Shown: positions 1,380 through 44,669 of the stretch, in pieces | How positions within the stretch are numbered: position 1 is the stretch's first letter | Layout: every line of letters starts with the position of its first letter | NCBI GenBank assembly: GCA_963791045.1 | Contig: CAWBQK010000001.1 | Span: 32,001-96,000 of the forward strand | Source: Candidatus Latescibacterota bacterium | GTDB taxonomy: Bacteria; Krumholzibacteriota; Krumholzibacteriia; WVZY01 | Direction: 5' to 3' | Length of the DNA stretch: 64,000 nucleotides | Translations under genes and position numbers: made by a program | Notes under the pieces: model-generated | Told to the model about the DNA's origin: nothing | Databases searched by the model: none | The model's input: only the letters and a program-made list of their open reading frames with translations

Positions 1380-3197
1380 CTATTCTCTTGTATCGGAGTC
1401 TGAAGATTCGGTACTGAGAGGAACAAGGACATCACGGGGGAGCTGCACCGGTTGCTCGGATGTCCGGGAGATCAACACACAATTGACTGCCTCGAAGGAA
1501 GTTCCTGATTTCACCGATCCTGACAGCGTCCAATTCCGGCGTTCATTTTCCAGAACGGTCGATGGATCGGCCAACACATCGGAAAGTCTGAACTGGAGGA
1601 CGAGGTCCTGAAAACCGTCACCGCCCTCGTTCGAACAATCACAATCCCCGCCTGTACCCGGCCGGCTCACATCGCGGTACTGCACCCTCGTCGGGGCGGC
1701 ATCTTCAAGGTAAAGCGACGTCACATCGATGTCGCTGACATCGAAGTCTTCCCCGCCGACAACGGCAACCGTCACCAGGTCCTGAATACCCAATTCGACG
1801 GCGTTCGGACACACACCGGGGGCGATGTCAAAAAACACATCGAGCGTCACATCGACCCATTCGTGTATCACGACGTTCGAACCCGCCGTGGCGCCGTCAT
1901 CATGATCGTCACCAATCACCGCAATGAGAAGGTCGCGCCCCGCGTTATTGCCGCGGTACAAAAACACGGCGTGGCCGGTCGAGTCGGTTCGAGCCTTCGA
2001 CACGACGCCGGAGTGCGGCCCCGATACGATCTTGAGAGCCACATCGACGTCGACTACGGGGACGCCATGATCCTGGACGACGGCCTTGATTTCACACGGC
2101 GAACCGACCTGGGTCTGCCCCGCCGATGCCGACAAAACGAACCCGTCTGGAGCAAGACCGTCGGCCACCGGCGCGGCTGCCACCACACCACGAGCACCGC
2201 GGCCGCCAATGAACGAGGCAAAGAACAGATTTTCCTCGTTGGATTGTGTCGCTGTATTTATTGAAATCCTGGAATCGCCCGGCGAAACGAACGGCCGCAG
2301 GTCATAATACTCATCATCGCTCGCCATGTTTGTGGGCACCGCGTACGCATCGACCGGATTTGCCGGAGAATCGTCGATGCCGCCGATACTTAGCAATCCG
2401 CCTGACGCGGGCGATCCGTCGTCGGGCCCTCCGGCGGACGTCGTCAAACGCTCACCGTTGACCTGGATGATCGTGTACTGATCGGTCCCACCGCTCGACT
2501 GCAGGCTGAAAGTGATTCCAACCCCGAGTTCATAACGCATCGATGCCAGATCCGCGGGAACCGGGCTGGAAAGATTGATTTTGAAGCTATCTTGCCTCGC
2601 CGACTGGGCGCCAAAATAGAGCGCCACATCGTTGTCCGGATAGGCGTCGGGGTCATCGAAAACCACGGCCAGAATAACCCCGTCGATGAGGTCGCTCTGG
2701 TCCTCCCACACATCGACGGGCACGCGCCCGGCGGGCGCGGCGTCGATCTCGCCCTTGATGAGCCGTGTCACGTCGGCCACGGCATTCCATGATCCGACGG
2801 CATTTGGAACCGTACGATCCCAGGCGACATGGTGACCGTCGATACGTATCTCACCGTCCGTGATTTGATGGGAAAAATTACCCGACGCGGCCGCCGCCAA
2901 AAAAACCTTGCGTACTACGCCGCGGGCCGGCTTGTCGACCTCAATGGTGCCAAACGACAGTTCGGTGCCTATGCCGTTTACCGACACGCTCAAAGGGCCT
3001 GTCGCGGCAAAGATCGTCTCCAGGCTCTGGGAAAAACGAACGGTCTGGTTCGACCGATCGGATGCGCCGGGTGGTTTTGTCGGCTGGGTGCGCTTCTTCG
3101 GTTTATATTTTACGCCGTTAGCAGGGGTTACAAACGCGGCGCAAACGAGGACCAGAACAAGGGAGCGCACCACGCAACGAAAGAGGGTTCGTATCAT
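1380..3197 (-). CDS. Secreted multidomain protein with a bacterial Ig-like (Big_1-type) domain
   Basis: Long ORF; signal peptide MIRTLFRCVVRSLVLVLVCAAFVTPANG; Ig-like segment IKAVVQDHGVPVVDVDVALKIVSGP...TDSTGHAVFLYRG; start chosen downstream of the promoter at 3235-3263. Confidence 0.75.
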   Translation of the reverse strand: MIRTLFRCVVRSLVLVLVCAAFVTPANGVKYKPKKRTQPTKPPGASDRSNQTVRFSQSLETIFAATGPLSVSVNGIGTELSFGTIEVDKPARGVVRKVFLAAAASGNFSHQITDGEIRIDGHHVAWDRTVPNAVGSWNAVADVTRLIKGEIDAAPAGRVPVDVWEDQSDLIDGVILAVVFDDPDAYPDNDVALYFGAQSARQDSFKINLSSPVPADLASMRYELGVGITFSLQSSGGTDQYTIIQVNGERLTTSAGGPDDGSPASGGLLSIGGIDDSPANPVDAYAVPTNMASDDEYYDLRPFVSPGDSRISINTATQSNEENLFFASFIGGRGARGVVAAAPVADGLAPDGFVLSASAGQTQVGSPCEIKAVVQDHGVPVVDVDVALKIVSGPHSGVVSKARTDSTGHAVFLYRGNNAGRDLLIAVIGDDHDDGATAGSNVVIHEWVDVTLDVFFDIAPGVCPNAVELGIQDLVTVAVVGGEDFDVSDIDVTSLYLEDAAPTRVQYRDVSRPGTGGDCDCSNEGGDGFQDLVLQFRLSDVLADPSTVLENERRNWTLSGSVKSGTSFEAVNCVLISRTSEQPVQLPRDVLVPLSTESSDSDTRE

Positions 3198-3234
3198 GGT
3201 TCTCCTCAAGGGGCAATTGCCTTTCTTTAAGTAA

Positions 3235-3263
3235 ATTATAATGTTACAGCGCTTGTAAGTCAA
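3235..3263 (-). promoter_or_regulatory. Sigma70-type promoter
   Basis: Minus strand TTGACT-17 nt-TATAAT, ~38 nt upstream of ATG 3197; spacer contains the inverted repeat TTACA-N5-TGTAA. Confidence 0.7.
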
Positions 3264-3320
3264 ATTCAAACCCCGGAGGCCGGTCGTGGGTGGGTGGGAT
3301 CGGCTCCCAACAAAAAGCAC

Positions 3321-3360
3321 AAAGCCCCTCCGGTCAATCAAGGCCGGAGGGGCTCTTTTT
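3321..3360. terminator. Intrinsic terminator hairpin
   Basis: agcccctccgg...ccggaggggct stem with A- and T-runs on the flanks, downstream of the porin gene. Confidence 0.75.
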
Positions 3361-3412
3361 CAATCCAATCAGTTATGTCGTCAACCGCCGGCGGCGGTCA
3401 CTCGAACCCTCG

Positions 3413-4972
3413 CTAGAGGGAGAAATCCTTTACCAGGTACAACTCGAGGAAATTCGAGTCGTATTCGTCGATCGCCATCTGGAAATCCCTGTAATCGTAA
3501 CGCGCATACTTCGCCTCGACGCCAAAGCCCCGTGCGAACATATATTCGAGCCCGATATCGAAGCTGTATTTCTCGATATTGAGGTCGCGCTTGCTTCTAT
3601 AATAGACGCCGCCGAGAGACAGTGTCGCCCCGTGGTACGCCGCCGGGATTACCCGCGCCGTAATCACGTAGTCGGAGAACGCCGCACTGCCGTCGAGATT
3701 CTCGTATTTTCCGAGATAGTACGCGTAGCTCAAAACCAACCCGCCAAACCGCTCTTTGTCGATGCTGTACTCCGCCGAGAACATATCGTAGTCGACGCGC
3801 GTGCCAAGCTCTTCCCGCTTGCGCTCGCGCCCCTGATAGAGCGCCGACAGCGAACCGAATCGATCGAGACGGTATTTTGCCGTCAGCTGATAGCGAGTGT
3901 AGTCCTCGTCACCGATGAGAGTCGACGATTTATCATCCTTGTCGTTGCGCATCCCGCCCAACGCGCGGAGGAACAAACGGCCATCGTGATTGAACCATGC
4001 GTTGAAAAGAAAACCGTTAGATTTGCGTCTATCGATTTTGTCGCTCGTCCAGCGGTTGTCGTACCCAACCCTTAGACCGCCCCTCTTGTTCCAGCTCTTG
4101 GTCAGAGAAACCGTGTTGAACACGTTCTCGGTTCCACGGTCGGTGATGCTGTGCTTGGTATAACCATACACGAACCGATAATCGAGAAGGAATTGTTCGG
4201 GCAAATAAAGCTTCGCCGCGCCCCACGGCAAATGGGTGTAAAGCTTGACATCCGAATCGTTCACCTCATCTTCACGATAACTGTAGCCACCCGAGACCAC
4301 GAGCTGCTCAAATCTTGGCGTCGGAATGGTCCCTCTCAGACGAACCTCGTCGCCCTTGCGATCTCTGTCGTCGTGGAGGTAATCCTGGAAACCGTAAGAC
4401 TTGTACTCGAGCAGCAGAGTTCCGCCGTAGTGAAACGACTGGGCGCCGATAGTGAGCGCGCCGCGTTTGAAATCGGACGCCACAACGGTCGGATCTGTGG
4501 GATCGTATTCGGTATAGGTTTCGCCCTTTTTGTCGATGTGGTCAAACCCAGCATACAACTTGAGCTGCTCCACCGGCGTAATCGACAGGCGACCGCCCCA
4601 CGACGTTCTCCTGGTGGCGTTTCGTCCCTCGGACTCGTAAATTCTCCGGTACTTGTTGTCGTACAACGAGAACGAAAAGCTTTTTGCCTTCGAGAAAGAC
4701 ATTCGCGAATTCCTGTTCTCGCGCGCAACGTTCGTCAGATCCGCGGTGACCCGCAGACCGTTATCCATCGTGTAGAAGAAATTCTGAAGCGAGAACGCCG
4801 TTCCCTCGTAAAGGTTGTGTGTTTCCTGGAAAACGGCACGGTTCCCGTTCTCGTCCAGGAAGTTATAACCAAGTTTTGCACGGCCGCTGCCCTCGTCTGC
4901 GAGGACCTGTGCTGCGGCCGCGAGAAAAAGCGCCATCGCTATAAAAAACACAGTGTATTTTTTCCGCCGCAT
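3413..4972 (-). CDS. MtrB/PioB-like outer-membrane beta-barrel porin
   Basis: Signal peptide, Tyr/Gly-rich alternating beta-strands, C-terminal LELYLVKDFSL; directly downstream of the decaheme cytochrome. Confidence 0.75.
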   Translation of the reverse strand: MRRKKYTVFFIAMALFLAAAAQVLADEGSGRAKLGYNFLDENGNRAVFQETHNLYEGTAFSLQNFFYTMDNGLRVTADLTNVARENRNSRMSFSKAKSFSFSLYDNKYRRIYESEGRNATRRTSWGGRLSITPVEQLKLYAGFDHIDKKGETYTEYDPTDPTVVASDFKRGALTIGAQSFHYGGTLLLEYKSYGFQDYLHDDRDRKGDEVRLRGTIPTPRFEQLVVSGGYSYREDEVNDSDVKLYTHLPWGAAKLYLPEQFLLDYRFVYGYTKHSITDRGTENVFNTVSLTKSWNKRGGLRVGYDNRWTSDKIDRRKSNGFLFNAWFNHDGRLFLRALGGMRNDKDDKSSTLIGDEDYTRYQLTAKYRLDRFGSLSALYQGRERKREELGTRVDYDMFSAEYSIDKERFGGLVLSYAYYLGKYENLDGSAAFSDYVITARVIPAAYHGATLSLGGVYYRSKRDLNIEKYSFDIGLEYMFARGFGVEAKYARYDYRDFQMAIDEYDSNFLELYLVKDFSL

Positions 4973-4983
4973 AGTAAACCTCG

Positions 4984-5931
4984 CTACCTGACTAGGGTGT
5001 GACAGCCGCTCTGATAACAATCCAGCCCGTACTTCGCGGGAAGATCCGGATCGAGATAGAAGTTACTGTTGAACGATCCATGCGTATCAACGTGACAGTA
5101 TTCGCATGAGACGTTCGCGTATGCGCCGCCGTGCGCTGTATTGTGCTTTGCGGGGTAATGACACTGGGTACAAATTTTGTTTCCGGGCTGCCTGAGGAGC
5201 CGGTCTTGCTCGCTGCCGTGCGGTTTGTGACAGTCGAGGCAGCCGGTGCCGCTCTGAGCGGAGTAGGCGTTTACCGCCTGGTGTTCGTAAAGGAACGGGC
5301 CTCCCTGCTCGGGGTGACAGTCGCGGCAGTGCTGCTGCAGATCGTACATGACCGCCTGGTCATCGCGTTTGACGAAGCTGTGGCAGTCCAGGCACGTCAA
5401 TGCTTTCTGCAGAACTGGATGATTCGAACGCCTGCGAAACTGATCGCGGGTTGACGCGTGGCACTTGAAACAGAACTCCATGTCACGATCGAGAAGGAGC
5501 TTTGCATCGTTTGTGTGCACTTTGTGGCACGACATACAGCTCAGTTCGGCGCTCGAGTGTGCGTCATAACCGTAATTGTCGAGATCGCTGTGACCCTCGT
5601 GGCACTGTGTACAAATATCTATCGCGCTCTTGCCCGTATAATCCGCCGGGTTGGTAATGGTCTCCTTCGAGGGATCGTCCAGGTGCCCCGCGGCGCCCTG
5701 GTGGCAAATCGCGCACGCCACGACCGTTCCCGGGTCCTTGATCTCGGAACTCAGGCGATGGGCCGTCGCCTTGAGCGAGAGGTTGTAATCTTCGTGACAG
5801 TCGAGACAGGTCTCGTCATCAACGTCCACATCCTTTGTCAGGGTCGCAGACGGAAATGCAAAAACAATGATGACGAGCAACGCGAAGCCCAATCCCAACA
5901 GCCACCGGCTGTTTGATGTCCGCATTCTCAC
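4984..5931 (-). CDS. DmsE/MtrA-family decaheme c-type cytochrome
   Basis: Signal peptide; 10 CxxCH motifs (CLDCH, CAICH, CTQCH, CMSCH, CFKCH, CLDCH, CRDCH, CLDCH, CTQCH, CEYCH) plus terminal CYQSGCH; MtrA-like GPFLYEH and CHKPHGS. Confidence 0.92.
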   Translation of the reverse strand: MRMRTSNSRWLLGLGFALLVIIVFAFPSATLTKDVDVDDETCLDCHEDYNLSLKATAHRLSSEIKDPGTVVACAICHQGAAGHLDDPSKETITNPADYTGKSAIDICTQCHEGHSDLDNYGYDAHSSAELSCMSCHKVHTNDAKLLLDRDMEFCFKCHASTRDQFRRRSNHPVLQKALTCLDCHSFVKRDDQAVMYDLQQHCRDCHPEQGGPFLYEHQAVNAYSAQSGTGCLDCHKPHGSEQDRLLRQPGNKICTQCHYPAKHNTAHGGAYANVSCEYCHVDTHGSFNSNFYLDPDLPAKYGLDCYQSGCHTLVR

Positions 5932-6100
5932 CTCCGAGGTTGACGACAGGTAACTGATTGTGAAAAGGGTAGCAATTTGCGTAACTGCGTCAACTGTTTT
6001 TTTTTCTATATATTAGGAAGATTGAACAACTTGGTCTCGACGCCCTTCAGCGCGTGGCGTTTTGATCAACTTGAACAACAATAGCGGGAATTAAGCGAGC

Positions 6101-6122
6101 GGGGTTCCAACAACGGAACCCC
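6101..6122. terminator. GC-rich hairpin, possible terminator
   Basis: ggggttcc-aacaac-ggaacccc perfect 8-bp stem downstream of the 6314-7078 gene. Confidence 0.45.
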
Positions 6123-6313
6123 ACCCTTAAAACTTGTCTTTGCCGGTGGTCGCGACTGTTTCTGTAACACTCTTTGTCCAGGAAGGCAGATCCCACGCAG
6201 TGGGACCCGCCTTCCCTTCGGGACGACGACCTCTTCCTGGTTCGCCGGCCTTTCAACGAGAGACTAGAGCCGACCGATACCAGGTCCGGACCGGTCGCGA
6301 CCACACAAATTCA

Positions 6314-7078
6314 TCAACGCTCGTACAAGGATTTTACCTTGCCGAACGTGGCTTTCTGTACGTTGCCGTTCGTGGGTTCGATCTTGAAGTTGTCCTTGCC
6401 GTCACCCGGGCCCCCGTAACTGCAATCGTCTCCCACCCAGGGGATACTCCCCATCGACCCGCACGTCCCGGGCGCACTCTCGGGCAAGGGCGGAAGGTAC
6501 ACCGTCAAGGCGCCGCTCGTGGCGAAGCCGACATAGTTGACCTCCGTGTATACCTTCGCCACACCCTGGCATGGCGTAATGACGGACACCACCCATTCAT
6601 CCAACCCCTGCTGGATATGGTAGAATTCCATCGTATAACGGCTGTACAGTTCGACGGTGAACGAGTAACCCTCGACGGGCTTGACCCAACCGACCACCCG
6701 ACAACATTGGTCCTCTCCGATTTGAACCCCGAATTCATTCTTGAGCTGGACCATCACCTGTCCCCAGTCGATCCCCTCAAGGTTGCCCATCTCGAGCCTC
6801 CATCGGATTGGACGTTCGCCGGTACAATCCACACAAGGGTCCGACGCCGCGGGACTGACATTCCTGATGTCTTCCGGCCACACGGGCTCCTCGTAAAAAT
6901 GTTTCCTGTCTCCCGGCGGCCATTTCACATCAACCGTGGCCATCACAGGATCGGATTTCAAGTACCAGCCCAAGACGCTCTTACCTACGGGCGTGATCGT
7001 AACATCTGCCTGAGCTGGCACGGCGATTACCGCCACCGCCAACACAATAATACCCGCCAGGATACGTGTACCCCACAT
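6314..7078 (-). CDS. Secreted hypothetical protein with C-terminal ATFGKVKSLY tail
   Basis: Signal peptide MWGTRILAGIIVLAVAVIAVPAQA; GGAGG RBS; ends NVQKATFGKVKSLYER*. Confidence 0.8.
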   Translation of the reverse strand: MWGTRILAGIIVLAVAVIAVPAQADVTITPVGKSVLGWYLKSDPVMATVDVKWPPGDRKHFYEEPVWPEDIRNVSPAASDPCVDCTGERPIRWRLEMGNLEGIDWGQVMVQLKNEFGVQIGEDQCCRVVGWVKPVEGYSFTVELYSRYTMEFYHIQQGLDEWVVSVITPCQGVAKVYTEVNYVGFATSGALTVYLPPLPESAPGTCGSMGSIPWVGDDCSYGGPGDGKDNFKIEPTNGNVQKATFGKVKSLYER

Positions 7079-7413
7079 ACCGACACCTCCTATAAAGGTC
7101 GGCTACAAAAAGGACCTATAATTTAGTGCGGATGTATTGAGCTTGTTGCAGTATGGCGAGATGCTTTGAACTCGATGCGAACTTGCGAGCTGTGTCTATA
7201 GAGGAAGGTGGGAAACCTCACTTACCGCTGCCTAAGCAGGGGAATTTAGCCTCAAAGTTAGGCTGCGTACTTTATAGTTTAACCAATTTGTTAACGATGT
7301 AAAGGCACTTTTTTATTGATTTTTGTCAGTTTTGTTAATGCGCTCATGAACACGAACCATGCCGCGCTGTCTCGCGACTCCGCGCGCATTTATGGTGATC
7401 GCGCAACACGTTG

Positions 7414-8829
7414 TTATTTCAAAAGTATCATCTTTTGCGTCAAACGAACTCCGCCCACATCCAATCTCGCGATGTAAACACCGGAAGATACAAACACTCC
7501 ATTTTTGTTGCGGCCGTCCCAGGCCGTCACGTTTAATCCGCCGGATCGCGGCTCGTCGATCAAAGTTTTGACGTGGCGTCCCAGCACATCGAAGACCGAA
7601 AGTCTGACATGCGACGACCTCTCCAGCGTGAATGGAATCGATGTCGAAGGGTTGAACGGGTTGGGTAGTTCCGGCCGAAAGAGGCAACGGCCGGTGCATC
7701 GCCCGCCACACCCGTTTGGACCGTCACACTAAATGCAATATCGAAAGGAGGAAGCCCGACTCCAACCGGGTCGGTCGTGATTTGGGTGTCGTCACCGATA
7801 TCAAAAATCCGAATTCCCGGTAGCGTCGGCGTTCTGTCCGCGACAAACAATTCCCCATCGGGTGAGAGTTCGACATCGTTCAATACGTAGTCGCCCGGCG
7901 CGTAAAGCGTGCCCGTCTTCGTCCCCGTCGAAGGATCGAATGAAATCAGTACCGTGTAAAAGTCGCCGTCGGTGACGATTGCATAGCCCTTGTTTTCGGA
8001 TACGATGACAAAGTCGTTTATGTCTCCCCCCGCGGCGGTTTCGGTGATCACAAATCCTTCCGTTTCAAAGGAGACTGGATCGATGACCTCGATCCCACCA
8101 TCGGAGATTCCCCAAAATCCGACGCAGGACACATAGAGTTTGCCCGTCCACGGATGCAAACGAATGTCCGAAGCGGGGTTGGAGCCGACAAGAGCGATCG
8201 ACTGGCCGCCGGGTGTGACCGAGTCGGTATCGACGAGCGTGTCCGCCTCCATGTCGACAACGGCGACATAGCTCGTTCCCACAGGACCCCAGGTTGTGGC
8301 GCGGTCGAGCCTTTGCACCGTCACAAAAAGGTGATTGCCCACACGGACCATCTGGTCCATCTCCGGTGTGCCGTCGGCGTCGGAAAACCCCGACAGATCG
8401 ATCGATCCCGTATTGGACCCGTTCGATGGATCGACAATCCAGAGGTCGGTCGTATTGTACCGGGTGACATACGCCTTTGTGTTATCAACCACGAATATGT
8501 CGTGCGGATCGGAGAACGTCCCCACCGTGAACTGCAGTACCGTCGAGAAATTGTCTTCGGGGTCGAGAATCTGGATATTGTCACCGCCGAAACGGTTGAC
8601 GACATATATCAGACCCGAGAAATACCGTGACACCGCGTCGCTGTGCACACCGGCCACGTTTGTTTGCGTCGAATAGGCGCCGTCGAGTTCGACCACCGAG
8701 GATGCCCCGGTTATGAAATCCGTCGTGGTGACAAACGCGAAGTCGTTCGCGCCAGCGGATACCGCCGGCACAAACCACAATCAGCACACCCGCCGCCACT
8801 CGCCATGAATTTCTCCACATCGACCTCAT
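7414..8829 (-). CDS. Beta-propeller (YncE/BtuG-like) protein with FlgD-Ig/T9SS-type C-terminal domain; frameshifted near both ends
   Basis: Propeller repeats (YVVNRFGGDNIQILDP, KAYVTRYNTTDLWIVDP, KLYVSC); a 1-nt shift at ~7665 restores NYPNPFNPSTSIPFTL...WDGRNKNG...SGVYIARL...TQKMILLK*. Confidence 0.8.
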
Positions 8830-8843
8830 GCGCCGGACACTCC

Positions 8844-11019
8844 TCACGGTTGATAACCAAATGTCACAAAAAAGCTTCTTCCGGGCAGCGGAAAACCGTT
8901 TACGTCGCTGATCTGGTTGTCTGGTCAGATTGCGCCCTTCGAAAGCCAGCATGACGCCGTTGCCAAGGGGGCGCCATTGGACCGCGGCGTTATGAATCTC
9001 CCGGGCGGGCACCGCCGAATGGTTGGCCGGATCGAGGTAGTTTTCGCCGATGTGATTGAAGTTCGTATGAAAGCTTCCACTTCTCCAACAACACGTCGAA
9101 GGAAAACCCAAGCGTATGCCGGGGCCGCGATGGAAGCTGGTTCCCGTTGTGGTACGGGATCGGCCCCACGTCCTTGCTATCGAGATACGAGTAGTTCCCT
9201 CCGACCCTCAGCCGGTTGCCCACCTGTGACGGCAAAAGAAAATTCCATCCCCCGGATCCGCGCCGCGCCGATATTTTGCGGCCGGGTCGTGAACTGCGAA
9301 TTGGGGAAGAACAAGAATGAGATTGCTCACTTCGTTGTCGAGATAAACCAACTCAACAAATATGTTTCTGAATTTCCAAAAACCGCCGGCATCCGAAATC
9401 ACCGCGCCAATATCCCGATTCAGACCTTCTTCGGGTTCCAGATCGGCGCTTCCCGTAACCGAACCGGTGTTGCCGAACAGTTCGACAAAGGTTGGCAGCG
9501 CGGTAGTAACGCCCCCAGTTGCCTTTGAAGGTGAGAAACGAAGCGGCAAGCCACCGGAATCCGGCGCGCGGCGAGACGTTGTTCCGGGTGACCTCACCCT
9601 GCGGCGTGGGCGGCAGCCACGGAAATCGGGGCGCGATCGTAAAATTCATTGGTGTGCGTCTGGTACCGGCCGGCGGCCGTCAAAACCAGACCAATCCGCT
9701 CGAGAACGACATCGCCCGACACCACACCGGCATAAGAGGTGCGCAGGCGATCGGGTCCGGACGACTGCGACGGGGAGAACGGACTCGGGATGATACTTTT
9801 CGTTTTTTCCCTCGGCGAACAGCTCCAGCCTCAGCGGCAGAGCCGGTGTGTCGAATGTCGACCGCCCCTGCAAACCAGCCGTCCGAAAATCATTGTCGGT
9901 CTCCTGCCGGGTCATGGAGATTTCGCCGTTCGGGTCATTGAACTTCTCGTTCGCCCCGATAAAGAAACCCTGCGCGGCGAATGTCAGGCGGTCGGTGAAT
10001 ACCTCGCCCGGGTCGACCCGGAGGTAAGCCATGTGGCGTTTTCTCGCGCTACGCGCCGTCGTTGCCTGGTGCGAGCCGATTCCCGGAACTCCGCCCTCGC
10101 GCTGGAAATAATTGTAGTTGAGCGATACGTCTCTGAGTACGGGCACCGTGGCGTTCAAACGGCCCATGACATTCCACGCGTCGGAATCATTGTTGATCCG
10201 TTCGGTGGCGTTGTCGTCTCCCGGATTCTCCGGAGTGCCGCCGTCATCGACAAACGTAAAATTGCCGTCGCTCTTAAAATGTCCGCCGTGGGCGAACACC
10301 TTCACGGCGCCCTTCCCCGACCACAACGACAACACCTGGCGTGCCGTGTTGAACGAGCCGTGTGACAACCGCGCTTCCGCCTGGGTCCCCGGCGCTGCGC
10401 TCACGCCGCTCCCCGCGCCGCCCCGCGAGGTCAAGTTGACCGCGCCCCCTATCGCCGACGACCCCAGATGCGGTGGCGTAAAACCGCGATAGACCTCGAT
10501 CGCATTGACGCCGCCCAGCGGCAGATCACCGAGATTCGACATTCCCCCGTAAGCGTCGTTCAACGGAATCCCATCGAGGAAAACATCGACCTGGTTCGAC
10601 GACGATCCCCGGATCGAGACCGTCGCAAAACTTCCCAGACCTCCGTACTGGCGAACGCGAACACCGACGGTCCGTTCGAGCACCGTCGACAAATCGTCGA
10701 CGCGGTGACGCCGCTCGCCCAGATCAAGAACGGCGACAAAACCCGACCGTTTAAAAACGTCATATTGATTTCTTGAAACGCGTGGCGCTTCTACGATAAT
10801 CGCCGGAACCGAAAAGAGACTGTCGAGAACCGTGCCACTGGCGTCGTCCGTCGCCTCGCCGTCCACCGCGTTCGCCGTCGGCAGCGCAAAACACATGAGC
10901 ATCAACATGACCACAAAAAGACGCAACGCGCCCCGGATCACAGCGATGTCAAACGGCGGCCGCCTACGAGCGCACGCCGATCGCACGGGAAATATCAAGA
11001 AAGATTCAGAAGGTATCAC
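8844..11019 (-). CDS. btuB: TonB-dependent receptor, probably cobalamin (BtuB-like); multiple frameshifts
   Basis: Plug motif [36 protein letters not shown]...IEVYRG...[10 protein letters not shown]; barrel fragments in several frames; C-terminus [20 protein letters not shown]; lies under a cobalamin riboswitch. Confidence 0.85.
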
Positions 11020-11314: not shown

Positions 11315-11391
11315 TGGCGCGCCCAGGAGGACTCGAACCCCCAACCTTCTGGTCCGTAGCCAAACGCTCTATCCAATTGAGCTATGGGCGC
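11315..11391 (-). tRNA. tRNA-Arg (ACG)
   Basis: GCGCCCATAGCTCAATTGGATAGAGC...CTACGGA...GGTTCGAGTCC...GGGCGCGCCA; 77 nt with CCA. Confidence 0.97.
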
Positions 11392-11401
11392 GCCCAAGTA
11401 T

Positions 11402-11842
11402 TTATTCGTCCAAAAACGTCGATCTCTTTAGAGTCGGTCCACCCGGCGGTGTAATCGACCCTGCTTCTTTTACGGGTTCGGTTCTCTGCGGCGGTTCGTT
11501 CATCTTCTGCCCATACGCCTCATGAACCTCGGTCTCGAATCGAAGACCGCCGACGGCTCCAGCGATGAGATTAAAAATCAATCCGCCGATCGTGATAAAC
11601 ACCGATCCGATGGTTCCGTAAACCATCGCCGCGACCGGCACCGCGAGAACGCCAAACACAATCCCCAACATCCCCATCTCAGGAAAGTCCTCTCCGAGGA
11701 GCGCCATGTTGAGTCCGCCGGCAAGGACCATCACAGATCCATATATCAACCCGATAACGAAGCCGATGAAAGTGTATATGAAAAACGCGATCTTGAAGAG
11801 CGAAAACAGCTCAATTCGTTTTATTTCTAGACGGGTCCGCAA
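11402..11842 (-). CDS. DUF3566-like membrane protein
   Basis: RLEIKRIELFSLFKIAFF N-terminus, two hydrophobic helices, FNLIAGAVGGLRFE motif; start TTG approximate. Confidence 0.7.
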   Translation of the reverse strand: MRTRLEIKRIELFSLFKIAFFIYTFIGFVIGLIYGSVMVLAGGLNMALLGEDFPEMGMLGIVFGVLAVPVAAMVYGTIGSVFITIGGLIFNLIAGAVGGLRFETEVHEAYGQKMNEPPQRTEPVKEAGSITPPGGPTLKRSTFLDE

Positions 11843-11870
11843 CAGCGAAACCTTTTCATTAAAAAATGAG

Positions 11871-11960
<90 letters not shown>

Positions 11961-11973
11961 AATCGGTTTTTTC

Positions 11974-12060
11974 TGGCGGAGGGCGAGGGATTCGAACCCC
12001 CATGGCTGTTCGCCCGGCGGTTTTCAAGACCGCTGCCTTACCAGTTAGGACTAGCCCTCC
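11974..12060 (-). tRNA. tRNA-Ser (TGA)
   Basis: GGAGGGC...GCGGT-CTTGAAA-ACCGC anticodon arm, long variable arm, GGTTCGAATCC, ends GCCCTCCGCCA. Confidence 0.95.
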
Positions 12061-12237: not shown

Positions 12238-12792
12238 ATGCGAACGACATGGCTGTTCCTGGCCCTGACCATTCTGTGCGCCGCATCGACCGTCCAGGCC
12301 CAGGGCGGCACCCTCATGCTTTTCTCCGACCCGAGCGGCCTCGACTGCGACCTCCATGACGATGCTCCGGGACTCTGCACATACTATGTAGTCCACATGG
12401 GAACCGCAGGAGCGACGGCGTCCCAGTTCGCCGCACCGAAACCCGCCTGCCATATGGGGATCTTCCTGTCGGACACAGGGCAATACGCCGTCACGATCGG
12501 TAGCTCACAGACCGGCACGGCAATTGGGTACGGGGCCTGTCTCAGCTCACCCATTCATATTCTCACGATAAACTTTTTTTGCCAGGGTTTGACCGGGGAG
12601 TGCTGCATGTACAGCATCGTGCCCGACCCCAACATCGCGTCGGGTCAGATCGAAGTCGTGGACTGCAGCGAGACCCTCGTGTACGGCTCGGGTGGAACGT
12701 CGGCGGTCAATCCGACCGTCTCGTGCTGTTGCCAGTGCACACCAGCGAAGGAATCTACGTGGGGCAAGGTCAAGTCGCTCTACGTCAACTGA
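12238..12792 (+). CDS. Cys-rich secreted protein with C-terminal STWGKVKSLY tail (paralog 1)
   Basis: GGAGG RBS; signal peptide MRTTWLFLALTILCAASTVQA; 12 Cys in the mature part; ends TPAKESTWGKVKSLYVN*. Confidence 0.85.
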   Translation: MRTTWLFLALTILCAASTVQAQGGTLMLFSDPSGLDCDLHDDAPGLCTYYVVHMGTAGATASQFAAPKPACHMGIFLSDTGQYAVTIGSSQTGTAIGYGACLSSPIHILTINFFCQGLTGECCMYSIVPDPNIASGQIEVVDCSETLVYGSGGTSAVNPTVSCCCQCTPAKESTWGKVKSLYVN

Positions 12793-12866
12793 TTATTTTC
12801 GACGTATTACCAACGAGGACCAGTCGGCGCAAGGCGACGGATGATCCGAGGTTACACCGTCACCAC

Positions 12867-12895
12867 TTGACTTAATGTTAAGCAAATGATATACT
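12867..12895 (+). promoter_or_regulatory. Sigma70-type promoter
   Basis: TTGACT-17 nt-TATACT about 210 nt upstream of the paralog 2 start. Confidence 0.7.
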
Positions 12896-13104
12896 ACGCC
12901 ACCTTCGACCCAGGGGAAAGGCGTTCCAACCCCACGAAAGGGGGTGGTCAACTGCACATCTTCGGGCCTTCCACGCCTTGGCATCCCGGTTAAACTTCCT
13001 CGCCCCACAACTTGCCCGTCATTTCAAACCAGCCTGGCGTTCTTCTCAATCATGTATTGATACGTAGTTTTGTTCTGTTGTTTGGCGACGAAGGAGGATC
13101 TATC

Positions 13105-13658
13105 GTGAAACGCATGCTATTTGTTACGCTGATTCTGGTTGCGGGCGGCAAGTATCGCATTCGCCCAGACCGTGGCTTCAATCGGCATGTTCGGTGACAT
13201 CCAGGCACCGACTGCAACCTTTGGGACAACATCCCGGGGCTTTGCTCCTATTATGCCGTCCATGTGGGCACACCCGGGCGCAACCGCCTGTCAGTTCGCC
13301 GCTCCACAGCCCAGCTGCATTTGGCAATCTGGCTCTCCGACACCGCGATGTTTCCGGTGACAATCGGAAATTCCCAGAACGGGGTGGCCATCGGTTACGG
13401 CGCGTGTCTCGCATCTCCATTGCCGTGCTGTTGGTCAATTATTTCTGTCAGGGACTCACTCCGCCTTGCTGTCGTTACAGGGTCGTTCCGGACCCCAACG
13501 ACCGCACGGGACAAGTGGAGGTCGTCGACTGTAACAACATGCTGCGAACAACCTCCGGATTGTGCGCGATCATCAATCCAACGATCGACTGTCCGTGCTG
13601 GGCAACACCAACAAAAGAAAGCACCTGGGGCAAGGTTAAGTCTCTTTACAGCCAATAG
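13105..13658 (+). CDS. Cys-rich secreted protein with C-terminal STWGKVKSLY tail (paralog 2), frameshifted
   Basis: AAGGAGG RBS + GTG; fragments GATACQFAAPQPSC, WLSDTAMFPVTIGNSQNGVAIGYGACLASP and VNYFCQGLTPPCCRYRVVPDPN...VEVVDC...TPTKESTWGKVKSLYSQ* align with paralog 1. Confidence 0.85.
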
Positions 13659-13683
13659 GAATCGCCGGATCTCCACATTAAAC

Positions 13684-13725
13684 AAAAGACACCCGGCCGT
13701 CCGCGGGCGACCGGGTGTCTTTTTT
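13684..13725. terminator. Bidirectional intrinsic terminator
   Basis: aaaagacacccgg...ccgggtgtctttttt between convergent genes. Confidence 0.8.
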
Positions 13726-13741
13726 GAATCTCAGTAGTCAA

Positions 13742-16700
13742 TTATTTCAATAAAAGCATTTTTCTTGTTTCCACAATTCCGCCGCCCTCCAACCTGTAGA
13801 AATAGATTCCCGTCCCCACCATATTCCCATGGCCGGTCATGCCCATCCCATCGCCGCTCGTATCGACCGGCGGGCAACTCTTCATCGACGAGCACCCTCA
13901 CCAACGCGCCCGTCACGTCATATATCCCAAGCCGCACACCGGCGACGGAATTACCGGAGATATTGAAAACAATCGTGGTCACCGGATTGAAGGGGTTTGG
14001 GTAGTTTTGAAGAAGCCCCGTATCCTCGGTAACAAAATCATCGGGAATATCACGAACAGCCGTCATAACTTCAAATCCAGCCACTCCGTTGCGGTGCACG
14101 TTCGACTGGTATGCGGGCCACGGAACGCTGCCGCTGTCGTAAGTCCCGTCCAGGTCCCACACATACACCCCACGGTCCCACCCCATCGCCACCAGGTCTA
14201 CATCGCCGTCTTCATCGAGGTCGGTGATAAACGGCGCACCGCGGATGGCGTCCTGCGTGGTCACCGGGAACCCGTCGATCTCGTCCCCGAGGATATTGAA
14301 CGCGCGGATAAAGCGCGACTCGTCGCCGAATACGATCTCAGGCACCCCGTCACCGTCGAGGTCGCCAACCACCGGAGACGCTTCGCTGTAATCTTCGGAT
14401 ACGATGACCGGCCATCCCGGATAGTCGTTCCCCTCATGATCGAATATGTAGAGACGCGATTCGAAGCTGTTCCAGCCGTAGACGACGGCCTCAAGCGTCC
14501 CATCGTAATTGAAATCGGCAAACGCAGGAGAAGACGTAAAGAAAATATCCCTCAACGCAACCGTTCGCGGCCATCCGTCGACAACGGTTCCGTCACAATT
14601 CAGAAGATAGACACGCCCATAAGATCCTTTGGACTGCGCCAGAAGTTCGATCTCGCCATCTCCGTCCGCGTCTCCCGCTATGATACTTCCCGCGCTTTCT
14701 CCGTCCATTGCGAACGGCCACCCGGCAACACAGCCGGTGCTGTCGCCGCTGAAAACATAAATACTATCGACGCGCGTCCCGAGCACTATGTCGTCCTTGA
14801 AATCCCCGTCAATGTCACAAAGCGTCGGTGTCTGGTAGTGAAAAATGGTCGCCGGCGTCCGACTGAACACACCATGCGTCGCCGGATTGTCATCGCCGTC
14901 GCGGTACTCCGTCCCGTCCGAATTCCATGCATAAACAACACCCCGAATATCCACCGCGATCACTTCGTAAAACCCATCGCCGTTCAGGTCTCCCGCGACC
15001 GGCGCCGCGCGAAATTCATTCTCCGCGGTTTGCGGCCAACCGGGAAGAAGGTTGCCGTCGTGCGAGACGCAGTAAACCTGATCTGTGTTCAGGTCCGCGG
15101 CGATAATATCAAGACCGGGCACGTTGTCGAGATTGGCGAGGGCGATGGCGGCGTTGAATTGCGCCCCTACCTCGGCCAAAACTCCCCACGTCTGGGGATC
15201 GCTATCCCCGTCGAGGACCTCCTGCCCGTCGTGATGCCACGCGCATATGTGCGCGCTTCCCGCAACCAGTTCGAGGTCACCGTCGCCGTCAATATCACCG
15301 ACGACCGTCGGGCTTGTCGTTGAGACGTCCACCTCCAGCGGCCACCCCACGAGCTGCGGCGGATTGGTGCTCACCGAATACTCCGTGGACGGCGCGCTTT
15401 CGTTCCCCGAACTGTCCACCGCGGTCACCACATAATAATAACGCGTGCTCGCCGACAGTCCCGGATCGATGAACACCGTGTGTTCCAACGGATCGACGGA
15501 AACGAGATCGTAAGGACCACCTTCGCCGAGCGATCGATAGACCTGGTATCGAGACACGTCGGGACTCGGACTCTTCGACCAGTATGTTTTTATACGGTCG
15601 ACGCCAAGACCCGCGTCAAACACAAGATTGGACGGAGGATAAGGTGCGCGGAGCTCGATCGTGTCGACGTACGCGCGGCCAAAGAGATCGGTCACTTCGA
15701 CGACAATATTATTTTCGACGGCCGTATCGGATTCCTCCAGATGGAAACCCGCCGAGTTTTCTCCGCCGGTGAACGGGGCGAGGTCGGGATACCCGGCCGT
15801 CCCCTCGTGAACTATCACCCGTCCACTGAGATCGGTCACGACCGCCGTCAGACCGAAAGCCGTTCCCGTCCCGTAGTTTTTGAGCTTGTAGAAGAGGAGA
15901 AATTCCTCGTTGTTTTCGTTTATACCGTTTCCATTGCCATAGGGCGCGTCATCGGAAATTCGGAGCGTCGTGAGCGCGAGGTCAGGGGCATGAACTTCCC
16001 GCTGGAGGATGTCCTCCCACTTCGGCAACCCGTTATTCTCGATCACAAGATCGAACTGTATTGACCGCGCATCTTCTATCGCTGAATTGAATGTCACTCG
16101 AATCGAGTCTGTTGCCGCCGCGGCCGTCCCCGCCCCGATCACACCAAAAGAAGCCGTGCTGTCGACAACGATCACATCGGCGTCATCACAGCGAAGCGTC
16201 GCCGTCACGCTTCCCGAAGGCGTTCCGCCCGCATTTTTGAGTTCGAGGGCAAAGTCGACCGTCTCTCCCGCATCGATTACACCATCGCCATTGCCAAAGG
16301 TCCCACCAGTCGTGTCATCATCGACCGCGGCCGACGACAGGCTAACGTGCGCCCCGAGAGTCGGATCGACGGTTATCGTTCCCTGGTAACGAACCAGGTT
16401 TAAACCGGTAACCACGACGGAGATTTCCCCCGGCGTGTCCGCCGAAAAATCAAATGTGATACCGCCCATTGCGTCGGTCGCGCCATACTGATAATCATCG
16501 CCGTCTTTCCGAAGACATACAAACGCGGAATCCACGGGAAGCCCGTCCGATGTGACCGCCACAACAAGATTTGTGTTTCCGAGCGCCACATTCGTCGCAT
16601 GGTAAACATTCGGGTGTTTGACGGCACCCGTCCACATCGGCATCTCCGGATCGCCCAGAAGCGTGTATACGTAGTGCGTCCACAGATCGACGTTGTCCGC

Positions 16701-18542
16701 CGACTCCGCCCACGGCGTGCGCGCGGCTCTCGAAAACGTTAACGTCTCGCCGCCCCGAACCACGTTGTGATTGAAAGCGAGGTCGTAGTACGCGTTCATG
16801 TAATGCGAATCGCACGCGGGAAATTCGAGATGACTCGCGCCAACCGTCGCAACCGCGCCCCCGTTCGGATTCGTCAACATGTTCTCGGTAATACACTGGT
16901 AATCGAACGCAGACACTTTACAGTCGACCATGAATATCGTAAAAAGCCGATCGCCGTTCGTCAGCGCGTCTATGTCCGATTGAATAACGCTCTGATCGGC
17001 GCACGAAAAGTTGAATCGGGACCCGTGCCCGACATGATTCACCATGTTGAAACCCGAATCGAGAGAATCGATCATAATTTGCCGGGTCAAATCCACCGCC
17101 CCCGGAAATATCTCGTACGTTTCGTAAGCTCTCGTTCCACGGATCGGCTTGTCGTCCATGAAGAGCACCCACGTCATTTCGGAAATGTCGGCTCCGTTGA
17201 GGGCCATCGGTTCGCCCTCGACCCAATCGGGCGGAAAGAGAACTTCCGCGCCAAACAACACTTTGTCGGTGTATTCAGTGTCCATGGGGGTTTCATACGC
17301 AATTACTTTGTCAATAATAGTCACCGCGTCGACCAGCGTCGATGTCGGCACCCGGCCGACATGCACTTCCGCATAGAGATCGGGGTCGTCAAAATCCGCT
17401 CCGTGCTCTCCCCAATATTCGTCGTTGTTCGAATTCCAGGATCCATCGAGACAGGCGAAATACATGTCGGCGGGTATCTTGACTCCTTCGCCCAGGTATC
17501 GGGTCAACCCATAGCGCACCGGAATGACATCGGTATCCCCGCCGAGCAGGACGAACTCGATTCCCCATTTTTCGTACGCGTCGCGAATAAAGAAGCGAAT
17601 GGTTTCCGCAAGGTCCACACCGTTTATGCAATTCTCCGCAATCCACTCCACAGACCTGACAACCGTCGGAACACCTTTTGATGTTTTCCAGTCCGCGAGA
17701 CGTTCGAACTCGCTCGATAATTCCTCCGTGGTGATTATCAGATAATCCACAGGGCTCCCCTCGATCGAGGGGCTCATCGTCGGGCTAAAACCGCCTTTCG
17801 GCATTTCGACCGCGATACGATCCCCGCCGTAGGAATTAGTGGCCCCCGTATTCACAACGAGAGTTGCCAGGATTCCATCGATCTTCTCCTGGAAATCAGA
17901 ATCGTGCCGCCGTCTTGAAACAGGCGCTTCGCCGGCGGCAGGAGCTGTTGTCACGGCGACCTTGACCGTCTCGTTCAGGTTCAAATCGCCGTTTGACAGA
18001 CGAAGCGGATAAACGGCAAAACTGGCTATCGAATACCCGTGAAGAAATCCCGTTCCCAGATATATACCGTTCGCCGGCGGGTACACGTCGCCTTCGGAAG
18101 AACCGGCGAACAACGGCGTTCCCTTCCCCACCAGTCCATCGATCGTCGAGTACGGAGAAGCGGCCGGGATCGTGACACCGCGCGCGATTGTTTTCTCAGC
18201 GCCCGGCGTGAATGAGTATCCGTCCACCCGATCACCAGGTGGCAAAATAAAGCTCACGATCCGACAGGGCAGGACGGGTCGTCCCGCGTCGCGCACCATC
18301 TCAAACCCTTCTCCTGCAACGCGGACGCGCGACAAATTCCCGCTCGCAACCAAAGTGACATCGTTTTCGGAGAGCGAGACGATGTAATCCAGGTTGGCGG
18401 CCGAAAGAGTGGCCGGGATAAAAGCAAATAAAAGAATGGGAAATAAGACAAGGAGCGTTGGCATCCGTCGCCGCGCGCGGGACGCGCCGCGCGACTCGGA
18501 TCGGCGGACCGAAACCATGTGGACGGAATACACTGACCGCAT
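13742..18542 (-). CDS. C25 (gingipain) family cysteine peptidase with propeptide, Ig/FN3, FG-GAP repeats and FlgD-Ig C-terminal domain
   Basis: DYLIIT..LADWKTSKG, VLLGGDTDVIP, VGRVP, catalytic NHVGHG and VDC, LLGDP; GDIDGDGDLE repeats; NYPNPFNP; a 1-nt shift near 13835 restores GIYFYRL...TRKMLLLK* (stop 13742); real start may be 18464. Confidence 0.9.
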
Positions 18543-21515: not shown

Positions 21516-22670
21516 TTATTCAGCCTGTTCTCTTTTTGCCGCAGCGATTTTCTTGAGATCGCCCTGACGTGTGATTTGTTTCGTCGCGTAACTTCCCCAC
21601 TGCGGATCTCCGACGGCGTTCTCGAACTTTGAGATCGCCTCGTCGTAGCGCTGGAGTTTCTCGAGCGATTTGCCCCACGCACAGTACAACCCCGCCTTCT
21701 TGTCGGCGATTTCAAGCCCCTTCTTTGCGGTCTCAATCGCTTTGGTAGGATTGTTGGTCTGGTTGTACGACATCGCGAGATACTGGTACGCCTCGGAAAA
21801 ATCGGGCTTGAGTTCGATGGCCTTCGCAAACTCCGGAGCGGCCTTGTCGTACTGCTTATTCTGGAAATACGAGATCCCGAGGTTGAACCGATGCGCCGGG
21901 CTCTCCGGATCGGCTTTGACGAGATCCTCGAACACTGCCTCAGACTTTTCAAAATCCTTGTCTTCGATATAGAGCCGGCCCAGCTGGGTCTTGATCTTAA
22001 CGGACTCTTCGGGCGGGGCCACTGTGACGGCACGTTCGTAAAGTTCGAGCGATTTTTCCTTGTCTCCCTCATCCATGGCCATCTTGGCCAGGCTTCCAAG
22101 ACTCTGGTAATCATTCGGATCGATTTCTAAGGCTTTTTCATAATGAATCTTGGCGTTGACGGGATCGTTCATGCCCTTGTAAATCACGCCGAGGCGGACA
22201 TGCGCGTCGTGATTCCCCGGCTCGAGCGCCACAACTTTTTTGTAGGTTTCGACGGCCGGAGCGTACTGCTTGGAGAGCACCTGGTAATGACCGAGATTCG
22301 CGAGAAGGCGAAGATCTTCGGGGTATTTCTTGACCACAGTCTCGTACGCGGTCGCCGCCTTGTCGTATTGCTTGAGATTCGAATAGCATTTTCCGAGTTC
22401 ATGGAGCGCGTCGAACCGTGACGGATCCGTCGCGATGACTTTTTCGAACTCGGCCGCCGCTTTTTCATAATCACCGGCGGCTACAAACTGCTGCGCCGTC
22501 TGGAACATGAGATCGACCTCGGTGAGGTTCCGTTCGAATCCACGATCGTCGGTTGTTGTACTTATAACTTTTTTGTCATCTTGTGCATATGCACTTCCCT
22601 CGCCGTCAACCAACATCCCAGGTATCAGGAGCAGTCCCGACAAAACGACGATCAGTATCGATTTATTCAT
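21516..22670 (-). CDS. Secreted TPR-repeat protein
   Basis: Signal peptide followed by repeated 34-aa TPR patterns. Confidence 0.85.
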   Translation of the reverse strand: MNKSILIVVLSGLLLIPGMLVDGEGSAYAQDDKKVISTTTDDRGFERNLTEVDLMFQTAQQFVAAGDYEKAAAEFEKVIATDPSRFDALHELGKCYSNLKQYDKAATAYETVVKKYPEDLRLLANLGHYQVLSKQYAPAVETYKKVVALEPGNHDAHVRLGVIYKGMNDPVNAKIHYEKALEIDPNDYQSLGSLAKMAMDEGDKEKSLELYERAVTVAPPEESVKIKTQLGRLYIEDKDFEKSEAVFEDLVKADPESPAHRFNLGISYFQNKQYDKAAPEFAKAIELKPDFSEAYQYLAMSYNQTNNPTKAIETAKKGLEIADKKAGLYCAWGKSLEKLQRYDEAISKFENAVGDPQWGSYATKQITRQGDLKKIAAAKREQAE

Positions 22671-22779
22671 TTTTACCCTTCCTTACTCAGGGAGACAACA
22701 CTCAGCAAGCAACCCATTATAAATATGGGTGTTAGCCCCCACCTGTGTCAAGTAATGATCCCAAAGACTTTCCGCGAGC

Positions 22780-23442: not shown

Positions 23443-23504
23443 TGTGTCATTCGGTGTATCGCCCGGCGCTTCCGCGGCGCCGGAACCAAAACCGTCCCTC
23501 GGGC

Positions 23505-25905: not shown

Positions 25906-25976
25906 ACTGATTTCCTTGATCGTAATTGCAAATTACTATCACAAAATATCTTATAACGTCAAGGCGATTAGCCCGA

Positions 25977-27015: not shown

Positions 27016-27020
27016 CTAGC

Positions 27021-44439: not shown

Positions 44440-44669
44440 GGGAACCCCCTTCGTTGCTCGTGGGACATGCTGAACGTGCACCTGTCAGGATACAACGTAA
44501 CCTATAACGCGTCAACAAATTAGAGACGACCGACTTCCCAGAAATGTTTTGTCGTACTGTTCCCCGTTCTTCCCGGTTGTGGGGCAAAAGGCCGCATACG
44601 GCACAACAATTGCTCCATCTTGTGCGGTTCGTGTCTAAACCACTAAAAACTTACCAGATTAGAAGCGCC

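Follow-up and report, generated by a model that had tools for sequence, protein, structure and literature searches.

Three C-terminal signatures of exported bacterial proteins, LPXTG, PEP-CTERM, and the C-terminal domain (CTD) of type IX secretion systems (T9SS), each led to dedicated machinery and to a listing of the surface proteome from sequence only. The tripartite signals consist of a motif, a transmembrane helix behind it, and then an Arg-rich cluster, as set out in the accessible part of the Haft myxosortase preprint (bioRxiv 10.1101/2023.06.07.544157). Here we analyze a C-terminal tail encoded at three sites in a 64-kb stretch of DNA from a Candidatus Latescibacterota bacterium (contig CAWBQK010000001.1; the whole stretch of 64,000 nucleotides is called the window below) and its occurrence in other genomes. 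The tag lacks both the transmembrane portion that sortase-type signals have and the folded domain found on T9SS cargo, yet it marks dozens of protein families. Judged by comparative sequence analysis, it is probably a previously undescribed, lineage-specific C-terminal tag for localization, sorting, or anchoring of Sec-exported proteins.

The C-terminal tail and its carriers

The pattern G-x-[VIL]-K-x-[LMIVF]-Y occurs at exactly three sites in a six-frame scan of the window, at positions 12760 (+), 13626 (+), and 6346 (-), and all three read GKVKSLY followed by two residues and a stop codon. The three carriers are (i) paralog 1 (12238-12792, + strand), an intact open reading frame (ORF) of 184 amino acids (aa) for a secreted, Cys-rich protein with a predicted cohesin-like beta-sandwich body and the C-terminal tag TPAKESTWGKVKSLYVN (12739-12789, + strand), (ii) its tandem homolog, paralog 2 (13105-13658, + strand), with the tag TPTKESTWGKVKSLYSQ (13605-13655, + strand), and (iii) a secreted protein of 254 aa from the ORF list (6314-7078, - strand), with the signal peptide MWGTRILAGIIVLAVAVIAVPAQA and the tag variant QKATFGKVKSLYER (6317-6358, - strand). 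The third carrier is unrelated to paralog 1: when the two proteins are compared by BLASTP, the tail alone aligns, with 8 of 12 residues identical. An earlier note on this DNA, made from the letters alone, had claimed one tail on two tandem paralogs and on an unrelated protein, and the six-frame scans and the tail-only alignment bear this out, except that the third carrier, while sharing the GKVKSLY core, has F where the others have W. The same note described both paralogs as Cys-rich proteins with a signal peptide. Paralog 1 is an intact gene with a signal peptide and 12 Cys in the mature part of its product; paralog 2 is not an intact ORF here, as five breaks interrupt its frame in the present assembly. 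The family of the third carrier has three members found, including the one in the window, and all of them end in AT[FM]GKVKSLYE(N)[KR]; a structure prediction by AlphaFold2 (AF2) from these three sequences was unusable (predicted local distance difference test score, pLDDT, 33.8).

The three tails of the window differ in their synonymous codons (GTC/GTT/GTA, TCG/TCT/TCC, and CTC/CTT/TTG), and the DNA 3' of their stop codons is unrelated. Thus, the tail is conserved at the protein level rather than as a DNA repeat, and both a DNA repeat and a common terminator are ruled out as its origin.

To describe the distribution of the tail, a DNA pattern for T-W-G-K-[VIM]-K-x-[LF]-Y was scanned against species genomes. 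The scan returned at least 125 distinct matches, and the figures given here and below hold for the 125 matches listed. A stop codon follows within six codons of the Tyr in 111 of them, and after exactly one codon in 68; the terminal position of the 111 has a binomial p=4e-45 against a chance rate of 0.285. The match is C-terminal on an ORF of at least 40 aa in 106 cases. By lineage label, these 106 include 26 matches from Latescibacteria or Latescibacterota, 23 from Krumholzibacteriia, 22 from Eisenbacteria, and 24 from further metagenome-assembled genomes (MAGs). The rest are labeled, one or two each, Effluviviaceae, Gemmatimonadota, Fibrobacteraceae, Poribacteria, Verrucomicrobiota, Methylomirabilota, Limnocylindria, Hyphomicrobiales, and Bacteroidota; several carriers under these nine minor labels lie on short contigs, with binning unchecked. 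Among the other 19 matches, 15 fall in unrelated taxa, on short ORFs or deep in a Methylophilaceae protease, and 4 come from the target lineages and have a 13-residue extension or a truncated ORF. In the three main lineages, the further MAGs, and the nine other MAG labels, all 110 listed matches have at most 13 residues after the Tyr. Two complete Latescibacterota chromosomes each contain at least nine strict matches: CP070631.1 (L020, L034, L053, L069, L101, and L107-L110) and CP070677.1 (L041, L057, L068, L089, L090, L092, L102, L118, and L124).

The proteins that carry the tail are diverse. After removal of the tail, 104 carriers (those with an ORF of 60 aa or longer and no more than 15 residues past the Tyr, five short chance ORFs having been dropped by hand) fell into 45 clusters without BLAST similarity to each other at E<1e-4, a number in which singletons are inflated because 44 of the 104 carriers are represented by 100-aa pieces only. 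The largest cluster is the family of paralog 1, with 33 of the 104. An N-terminus resembling a signal peptide was found in 57 of 61 complete carriers by our own Kyte-Doolittle hydrophobicity heuristic, used in place of a trained predictor; in three of the other four it follows an internal Met, and in one it is masked by N. Pfam and NCBIfam were scanned with 61 of the 62 carriers that have a start codon in the fetched DNA, a 26-aa carrier being dropped. Most of the 61 belong to no family of either collection; the others contain CHRD, lamin-tail (five proteins), DUF7450, cupredoxin, pullulanase X25 with choice-of-anchor X, CBM96/DNRLRE, M10-like metalloprotease, choice-of-anchor V (three proteins), and choice-of-anchor P domains. 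The choice-of-anchor bodies of carriers also match NF041894, an NCBIfam family described as MYXO-CTERM-anchored. A looser pattern applied to the flanks of the carrier loci added 14 carriers with variant tails (SWGSIKTLYR, TWGAVKALYR, and others), often in tandem. The occurrence of a C-terminal motif on unrelated secreted proteins is real and statistically overwhelming.

The tag as a whole covers about 17 residues with the consensus P-[VT]-[PA]-[TV]-E-x-[ST]-T-W-G-K-[VI]-K-[SA]-L-Y-R-stop. Positions outside the search pattern were counted on one protein per cluster (n=45): P is found at -7 in 18, V/T/L at -6 in 36, P/A at -5 in 31, T/V at -4 in 30, E at -3 in 16, S/T at -1 in 34, and a single R between the Tyr and the stop in 27. 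Residues W, G, K, K, and Y are near-invariant, and from 0 to 15 residues are tolerated after the Tyr. A single terminal R ends 53 of the 106 C-terminal matches, whereas K is the sole residue after the Tyr in 2 of the 106, and about five more endings finish in K. The shorter pattern W-G-x-[VILM]-[KR] is present in the last 25 residues of 66 of 68 and 123 of 145 relatives of paralog 1 in two sets, and of 49 of 80 relatives of a choice-of-anchor V carrier. In the choice-of-anchor V relatives P0246-P0258, K or R replaces L before the Tyr (...WGKIKMKYR, ...KLRYR), and more distant relatives have decayed versions of the tail (...TWGELKVGALFERQSG); these forms suggest lineage-specific tuning or loss.

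Among 293 homologs from two carrier families, the core motif is internal in none. In longer proteins with the module of paralog 1 at their N-terminus, the profile match extends to about position 165 and no further, and the tail is found solely at the distant C-terminal end, after other domains (P0083, P0105, P0110, P0130, P0166, P0173, P0188, and P0190; also L008). The earlier note had named beforehand three findings that would speak against a signal, two of them being confinement to one homologous family and occurrence at internal positions or in cytoplasmic proteins; the 45 unrelated clusters, the terminal position, and the signal peptide-like N-termini point the other way on both. The tail might still be no signal at all, just the closing structural element of a single domain shared by homologs, or else a match due to chance or low complexity, and two of the three carriers in the window are indeed paralogous. 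Against this stand the different Pfam domains of the 45 clusters, the place of the tail outside the confidently predicted fold (see below), its relocation to the far C-terminus in multidomain proteins, and the statistics of its position, which leave such an explanation with hardly any credibility. The narrower form, in which the tail belongs to the fold of one domain, is ruled out by the unrelated clusters, the low pLDDT of the tail, and the relocation.

Homologs without the tail often carry another ending in the same place. Among the 145 newly listed relatives of paralog 1, 22 lack the tail, and 11 of these 22 end in a T9SS/FlgD_ig CTD, as does relative P0052. The choice-of-anchor V family was represented by 80 proteins related to L040; the tail, or a variant close to it, ends 49 of them, and 16 carry a Pfam T9SS CTD. 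Two other members, P0263 and P0275, end in a hydrophobic stretch and a basic cluster, preceded in one of them by PEPS, and P0262 has a dockerin (PF00404) in the slot of the tail. At the level of sequence, such swapping in one slot is the comparative-genomics pattern that defines a C-terminal sorting or anchoring signal.

The most frequent carrier family and its predicted fold

A word-indexed search with paralog 1 gave 68 relatives, 101-322 aa in length. Of these, 61 were used to make a profile, with P0040, P0052, P0055, P0058, P0061, P0062, and P0063 omitted as longer forms or fragments, and it matched 1956 proteins at E<=0.001 among 1.84 billion representatives. Of these matches, 145 were newly listed and 29 long ones were scanned for domains; in the long members, the module is accompanied by BACON or BACON_2, by fn3, and by Ig repeats. 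In a subgroup of the family (P0040, P0058, P0061, P0063, P0072, P0073, P0083, and others), 8-15 extra residues, often of the form AP...RR, follow the Tyr, so the tag need not sit at a free C-terminus.

The AF2 model of paralog 1, made with the profile alignment, is a confident beta-sandwich with a mean pLDDT of 91.2. The N-terminus was assigned, by reading the sequence, as the putative signal peptide MRTTWLFLALTILCAASTVQAQ (12238-12303, + strand), and the model places a helix at residues 2-16, ahead of the fold. The predicted folded body comprises residues 23-160 (12304-12717, + strand), all of its elements being beta strands, and the 10-residue blocks over residues 21-160 score 93-98. Residues 161-184 form a linker with a short helix (175-181) and score 76, 61, and 58. 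Because the pLDDT drops over these residues, the tail does not appear to be part of the fold and is predicted to lie outside it on a flexible linker.

When the body of paralog 1 was compared with the Protein Data Bank (PDB) by Foldseek, cohesins made up most of the top matches, with E-values down to 9.4e-6 (5n5p_A) and template-modeling (TM) scores normalized by target of 0.42-0.69 (0.68 for 2jh2_A). A structure search of the Atlas with the homolog P0013 returned Pfam Cohesin rows at TM scores of 0.55-0.61; the Atlas clusters of P0013 are commonest in Krumholzibacteriota. Both searches thus point to a cohesin-type beta-sandwich in the predicted structure. By sequence, the body matches neither Pfam Cohesin (PF00963) nor any other Pfam family at E<=10, and a search of the PDB with the family profile found no relative, giving two chance-level matches with E-values of 0.14 and 0.85.

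The likeness to cohesins raises the possibility that the tail is a mini-dockerin that docks on the cohesin-like module of the paralog 1 family. In such an arrangement, T9SS-anchored, tail-less, multi-module members would serve as surface scaffolds, single-module tailed members as adaptors, and the other tailed proteins as cargo. Besides the structural matches, the size of the family (the largest carrier group, with 1956 representatives) is consistent with this proposal, as are the long members with BACON, fn3, and Ig repeats, which end in the tail or in a T9SS CTD, and the true dockerin in the slot of the tail in P0262. It is nevertheless improbable: the body has no sequence match to Pfam Cohesin and a cohesin-like sandwich is a common fold, the tail stays undocked, at low confidence, in the AF2 model, and the body of paralog 1 was not seen among the listed carriers labeled Eisenbacteria.

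Candidate modes of action of the tag

If the tail is a localization or anchoring tag, the pathway can be outlined as follows: (i) the carrier would be exported by means of a cleavable N-terminal Sec-type signal peptide, as read from the sequences, (ii) the terminal 17 or so residues, attached to many unrelated folded bodies, would be recognized in trans after export by a lineage-specific partner, and (iii) the partner would set or keep the protein at the cell envelope or surface. The tag would then play the role that the T9SS CTD, an anchor of the PEP-CTERM/MYXO-CTERM type, or a dockerin plays in homologs. Regarding the recognition step, we favor a receptor module that binds the intact peptide noncovalently, rather than a sortase-like cutting step in the membrane, because no transmembrane segment presents the tail to an intramembrane enzyme, because 0 to 15 extra residues are tolerated after the Tyr, and because the near-invariant W, G, K, K, and Y resemble a peptide ligand in a groove. 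Provided that the tail is a tag, docking to a protein receptor, with the cohesin-like body of the commonest carrier family as one candidate, is plausible, if short of probable; a signal for export, or one that is cleaved, on an outer-membrane route such as T9SS is possible but rather doubtful; and direct binding to the anionic envelope is unlikely, as is, to the same extent, some other mechanism.

Several observations weigh against a sorting or anchoring tag, or against parts of this outline. No recurrent gene for a receptor or enzyme was found beside the carriers in 62 loci with 2-kb flanks, and a conserved neighbor in that role was accordingly discarded; what recurs in these loci is genes for T9SS-CTD proteins (8 loci), tandem tail paralogs, and the local synteny of close relatives only. 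The evidence is all comparative and all from MAGs. Cupredoxin and CHRD domains are usually thought to be periplasmic, and since one carrier has a cupredoxin domain (L052) and another a CHRD domain (L006), the carriers could be destined for the periplasm instead of the surface. The AF2 model does not confidently dock the tail on its own cohesin-like body (pLDDT about 58-61), which does not favor that body as the receptor. None of the listed carriers labeled Eisenbacteria belongs to the paralog 1 cluster, though the tail is common in that lineage. Finally, the helical hydrophobic moment of the tail is no better than that of shuffled sequences, which weakens a simple membrane-helix reading.

The same hydrophobic moment bears on a direct envelope anchor, that is, a short cationic peptide with Trp and Tyr that would bind lipopolysaccharide or anionic lipid head groups and so retain secreted proteins. 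The net charge of the tail is +2 to +3 with interfacial W and Y, the AF2 model has the short helix at 175-181, and the string WGKVK occurs in membrane-active antimicrobial peptides. However, for six tail strings, 23-56% of the shuffles match or exceed the observed moment. Of the earlier note's description of the tail as basic and amphipathic, only the first word can be kept, an amphipathic helix being unsupported. In addition, nine to ten residues are very short for an in-plane anchor, and a near-invariant W, G, K, K, and Y with a P-x-P-T-E lead-in across phyla exceeds what lipid binding usually demands. We regard this anchor as quite improbable.

A second type of partner might be provided by T9SS itself. 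The tail could be a minimal or alternative T9SS signal that is recognized by components of T9SS or by an outer-membrane shuttle paralogous to them, and that a C25/PorU-type peptidase cuts off in the manner of the CTD of about 80 aa. The genomes with the tail are rich in CTD proteins, four being encoded in the window and T9SS-CTD genes flanking carriers in the 8 loci mentioned above; the slot holds either the tail or the CTD, one excluding the other; both endings are hydrophobic and then basic (...KMVLLK and ...KSLYR); and a gene for a 1603-aa C25 peptidase lies tail-to-tail with paralog 2, an arrangement that by itself implies no functional tie. But the CTD is a folded domain matched by TIGR04183/PF18962, neither of which matches the 17-residue tail, mutual exclusivity suits a separate pathway equally well, and a convergent neighborhood is weak evidence. 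A T9SS signal in this sense is therefore unlikely.

The strict C-terminal position, together with carrier domains typical of the periplasm, may also be read as that of a ligand for periplasmic quality control or regulation: a degron or PDZ ligand for a tail-specific protease or stress sensor, or a peptidoglycan tether like that of the Braun lipoprotein. The Escherichia coli Lpp protein ends in ...YRK, which the ...Y-R of the tail recalls. A degron common to at least 45 families and swapped with surface anchors would be odd, however; the tolerance of up to 15 residues past the Tyr argues against a free-carboxylate reading; and terminal Lys is rare. A periplasmic ligand of this kind is very improbable.

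Returning to a sorting or anchoring tag, a bolder version would be a new system of the Latescibacterota, Krumholzibacteriota, and Eisenbacteria with machinery of its own that bears no relation to sortases, exosortases, or the T9SS CTD pathway, which we put forward tentatively, as falling short of the probable. In its boldest form, a 10-residue mini-dockerin would plug into cohesin-like modules, some of them T9SS-anchored, and form a cellulosome-like display network on the surface of diderm bacteria.

Gene neighborhood in the window

Alignment with the intact ortholog P0009 (tblastn of P0009 and paralog 1 against 12950-13760) shows that paralog 2 changes frame five times over 13105-13420; a single frame is kept only through the final 92 codons (13380-13655). 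Other genes of the window are broken as well: (i) the gene for a TonB-dependent receptor (8581-11019, - strand) has its plug in one frame and its barrel in three others, (ii) a type II secretion/type IV pilus ATPase gene (44544-46587, + strand) is split into two overlapping ORFs, with a break at about 45740-45880, and (iii) two T9SS C-terminal domains, in genes at 7380-8780 (- strand) and 13731-18542 (- strand), run on in another frame. The assembly looks indel-rich; for this reason, the breaks in paralog 2 are probably assembly indels, a decayed copy or pseudogene being the other possibility.

The second of these CTD genes encodes the C25 peptidase. It is convergent with paralog 2 and lies at 13742-18542 (- strand), its true stop being near 13742. 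The product, about 1600 aa long, combines a C25 (gingipain/PorU-type) peptidase domain with fn3, numerous FG-GAP repeats, and a T9SS CTD. A terminator-like hairpin (13684-13723, both strands) separates the two genes, for which the consensus scan is weak evidence, with 3 sites found in the window against 2.4 expected in shuffled sequences. Two further proteins with a FlgD_ig/T9SS CTD, one of them an LVIVD-repeat beta-propeller, are encoded at 41962-44478 (- strand) and 63554-63928 (- strand). With four T9SS-CTD proteins and three tail proteins within 64 kb, the tag coexists with cargo of the T9SS-CTD type.

The third carrier (6314-7078) lies in a same-strand run of genes (1380-11019, - strand) with the TonB-dependent receptor, a 406-aa T9SS-CTD protein, a multiheme cytochrome c (4984-5931; paired CXXCH motifs and NrfB/MtrC-like matches), and two large proteins without a family (3413-5020 and 1380-3341); this run may be an envelope or electron-transfer cluster. 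Directly upstream of paralog 1, on the opposite strand, are three tRNA genes, Arg-ACG, Ser-GCT, and Ser-TGA (11315-12060, - strand). Another run (21516-27884, - strand) encodes two TPR proteins, a FadL-like barrel, a DNRLRE-domain protein, ExbB, and TonB; the best match of the barrel is NCBIfam BamG, at 127 bits, short of the 250 set as cutoff. The gene at 62905-63462 (+ strand) encodes 186 aa, with surface repeats of the LA_2272 type and a match to the VC2662 family, the models being derived from Leptospira and Vibrio proteins.

Comparison with described sorting signals

A model of the tail would be of practical use. The carrier phyla, which lack cultured representatives, are frequent in soils, sediments, and groundwater; in their genomes, the model would flag secreted or surface proteins that are now mostly annotated as hypothetical, and it would aid phylogenetic profiling for the receptor. 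If the tag docks noncovalently, tag and receptor would make an affinity pair in which the tag is very short.

Across Pfam-A and NCBIfam (release 20), no model covers the tail in searches with whole carriers and, at E<=10, with 12 isolated 40-aa tails, 3 of them from the window and 9 hand-picked from different clusters, and none of the NCBIfam sorting-signal models matched 66 whole carriers and the same 12 tails. Full-text literature searches, with subscription journals outside their scope, returned no description of the motif. The third finding that the earlier note had named as speaking against a signal, coverage by a characterized sorting-signal model, thus came up in neither kind of search. 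The Haft preprint lists orphan signals, and its accessible part makes no mention of the tail or of these phyla (bioRxiv 10.1101/2023.06.07.544157).

Among described systems, the type A CTD of T9SS (TIGR04183/PF18962, often FlgD_ig PF13860) has several traits in common with the tail. Both are found at the extreme C-terminus of Sec-exported, often surface-type proteins of the same genomes, both occupy one slot in homologs, and both end in hydrophobic and then basic residues. In contrast to the tail, which is predicted to be a linker with a short helix, the CTD is a folded domain with models of 72-75 positions; the note's remark that the tail is far shorter than a T9SS CTD was accurate. At E<=10, TIGR04183/PF18962 match neither the three window carriers nor the 12 isolated tails, whereas the CTD proteins of the window do match.

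LPXTG/sortase, PEP-CTERM/exosortase, MYXO-CTERM/myxosortase, and GlyGly-CTERM/rhombosortase signals resemble the tail in being short, exclusively C-terminal signatures on many unrelated secreted proteins of one lineage, and in occurring on bodies that NCBIfam calls choice-of-anchor. They differ in the transmembrane segment that follows the motif: in the tail, 0-6 residues remain past the Tyr in 111 of the 125 matches, and over the final 35 residues, the hydropathy of the most hydrophobic 15-residue stretch does not exceed 0.61 in carriers, against 2.3-2.7 in two homologs with transmembrane-type endings, as expected from the note's claim that a transmembrane segment is lacking. Unlike the tripartite signals, the tail usually has a single terminal R and no basic cluster, apart from the subgroup that ends in ...RR after an extension of about 10 residues. 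WGxxGxxG-CTERM (NCBIfam NF038039) is, like the tail, an orphan C-terminal signature for which no sorting enzyme is known, but it resembles the tripartite signals, according to the accessible text of the preprint (bioRxiv 10.1101/2023.06.07.544157).

The comparison can be extended to three systems of other kinds. The outer-membrane beta-signal has an aromatic last residue on the final strand of a beta-barrel, while the tail ends mostly in R and is predicted to lie outside a sandwich of soluble type. In the Braun lipoprotein, the C-terminal Lys is the residue attached to peptidoglycan, and this Lys is rare in the tail. The dockerin-cohesin pair of the cellulosome is closer, as the dockerin is a C-terminal docking module on diverse secreted proteins and the commonest carrier body is predicted to have a cohesin-like fold. 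Dockerins are a duplicated calcium-binding module, far longer than the tail, and the dockerin repeat model (PF00404) does not match the tail.

The general definition of a C-terminal sorting signal describes the tail well: it is terminal only, occurs on several unrelated secreted families and in several copies per genome, and is restricted in lineage. This operational definition is that of the accessible part of the Haft preprint (bioRxiv 10.1101/2023.06.07.544157). In its architecture, the tag differs from all described sorting tags.

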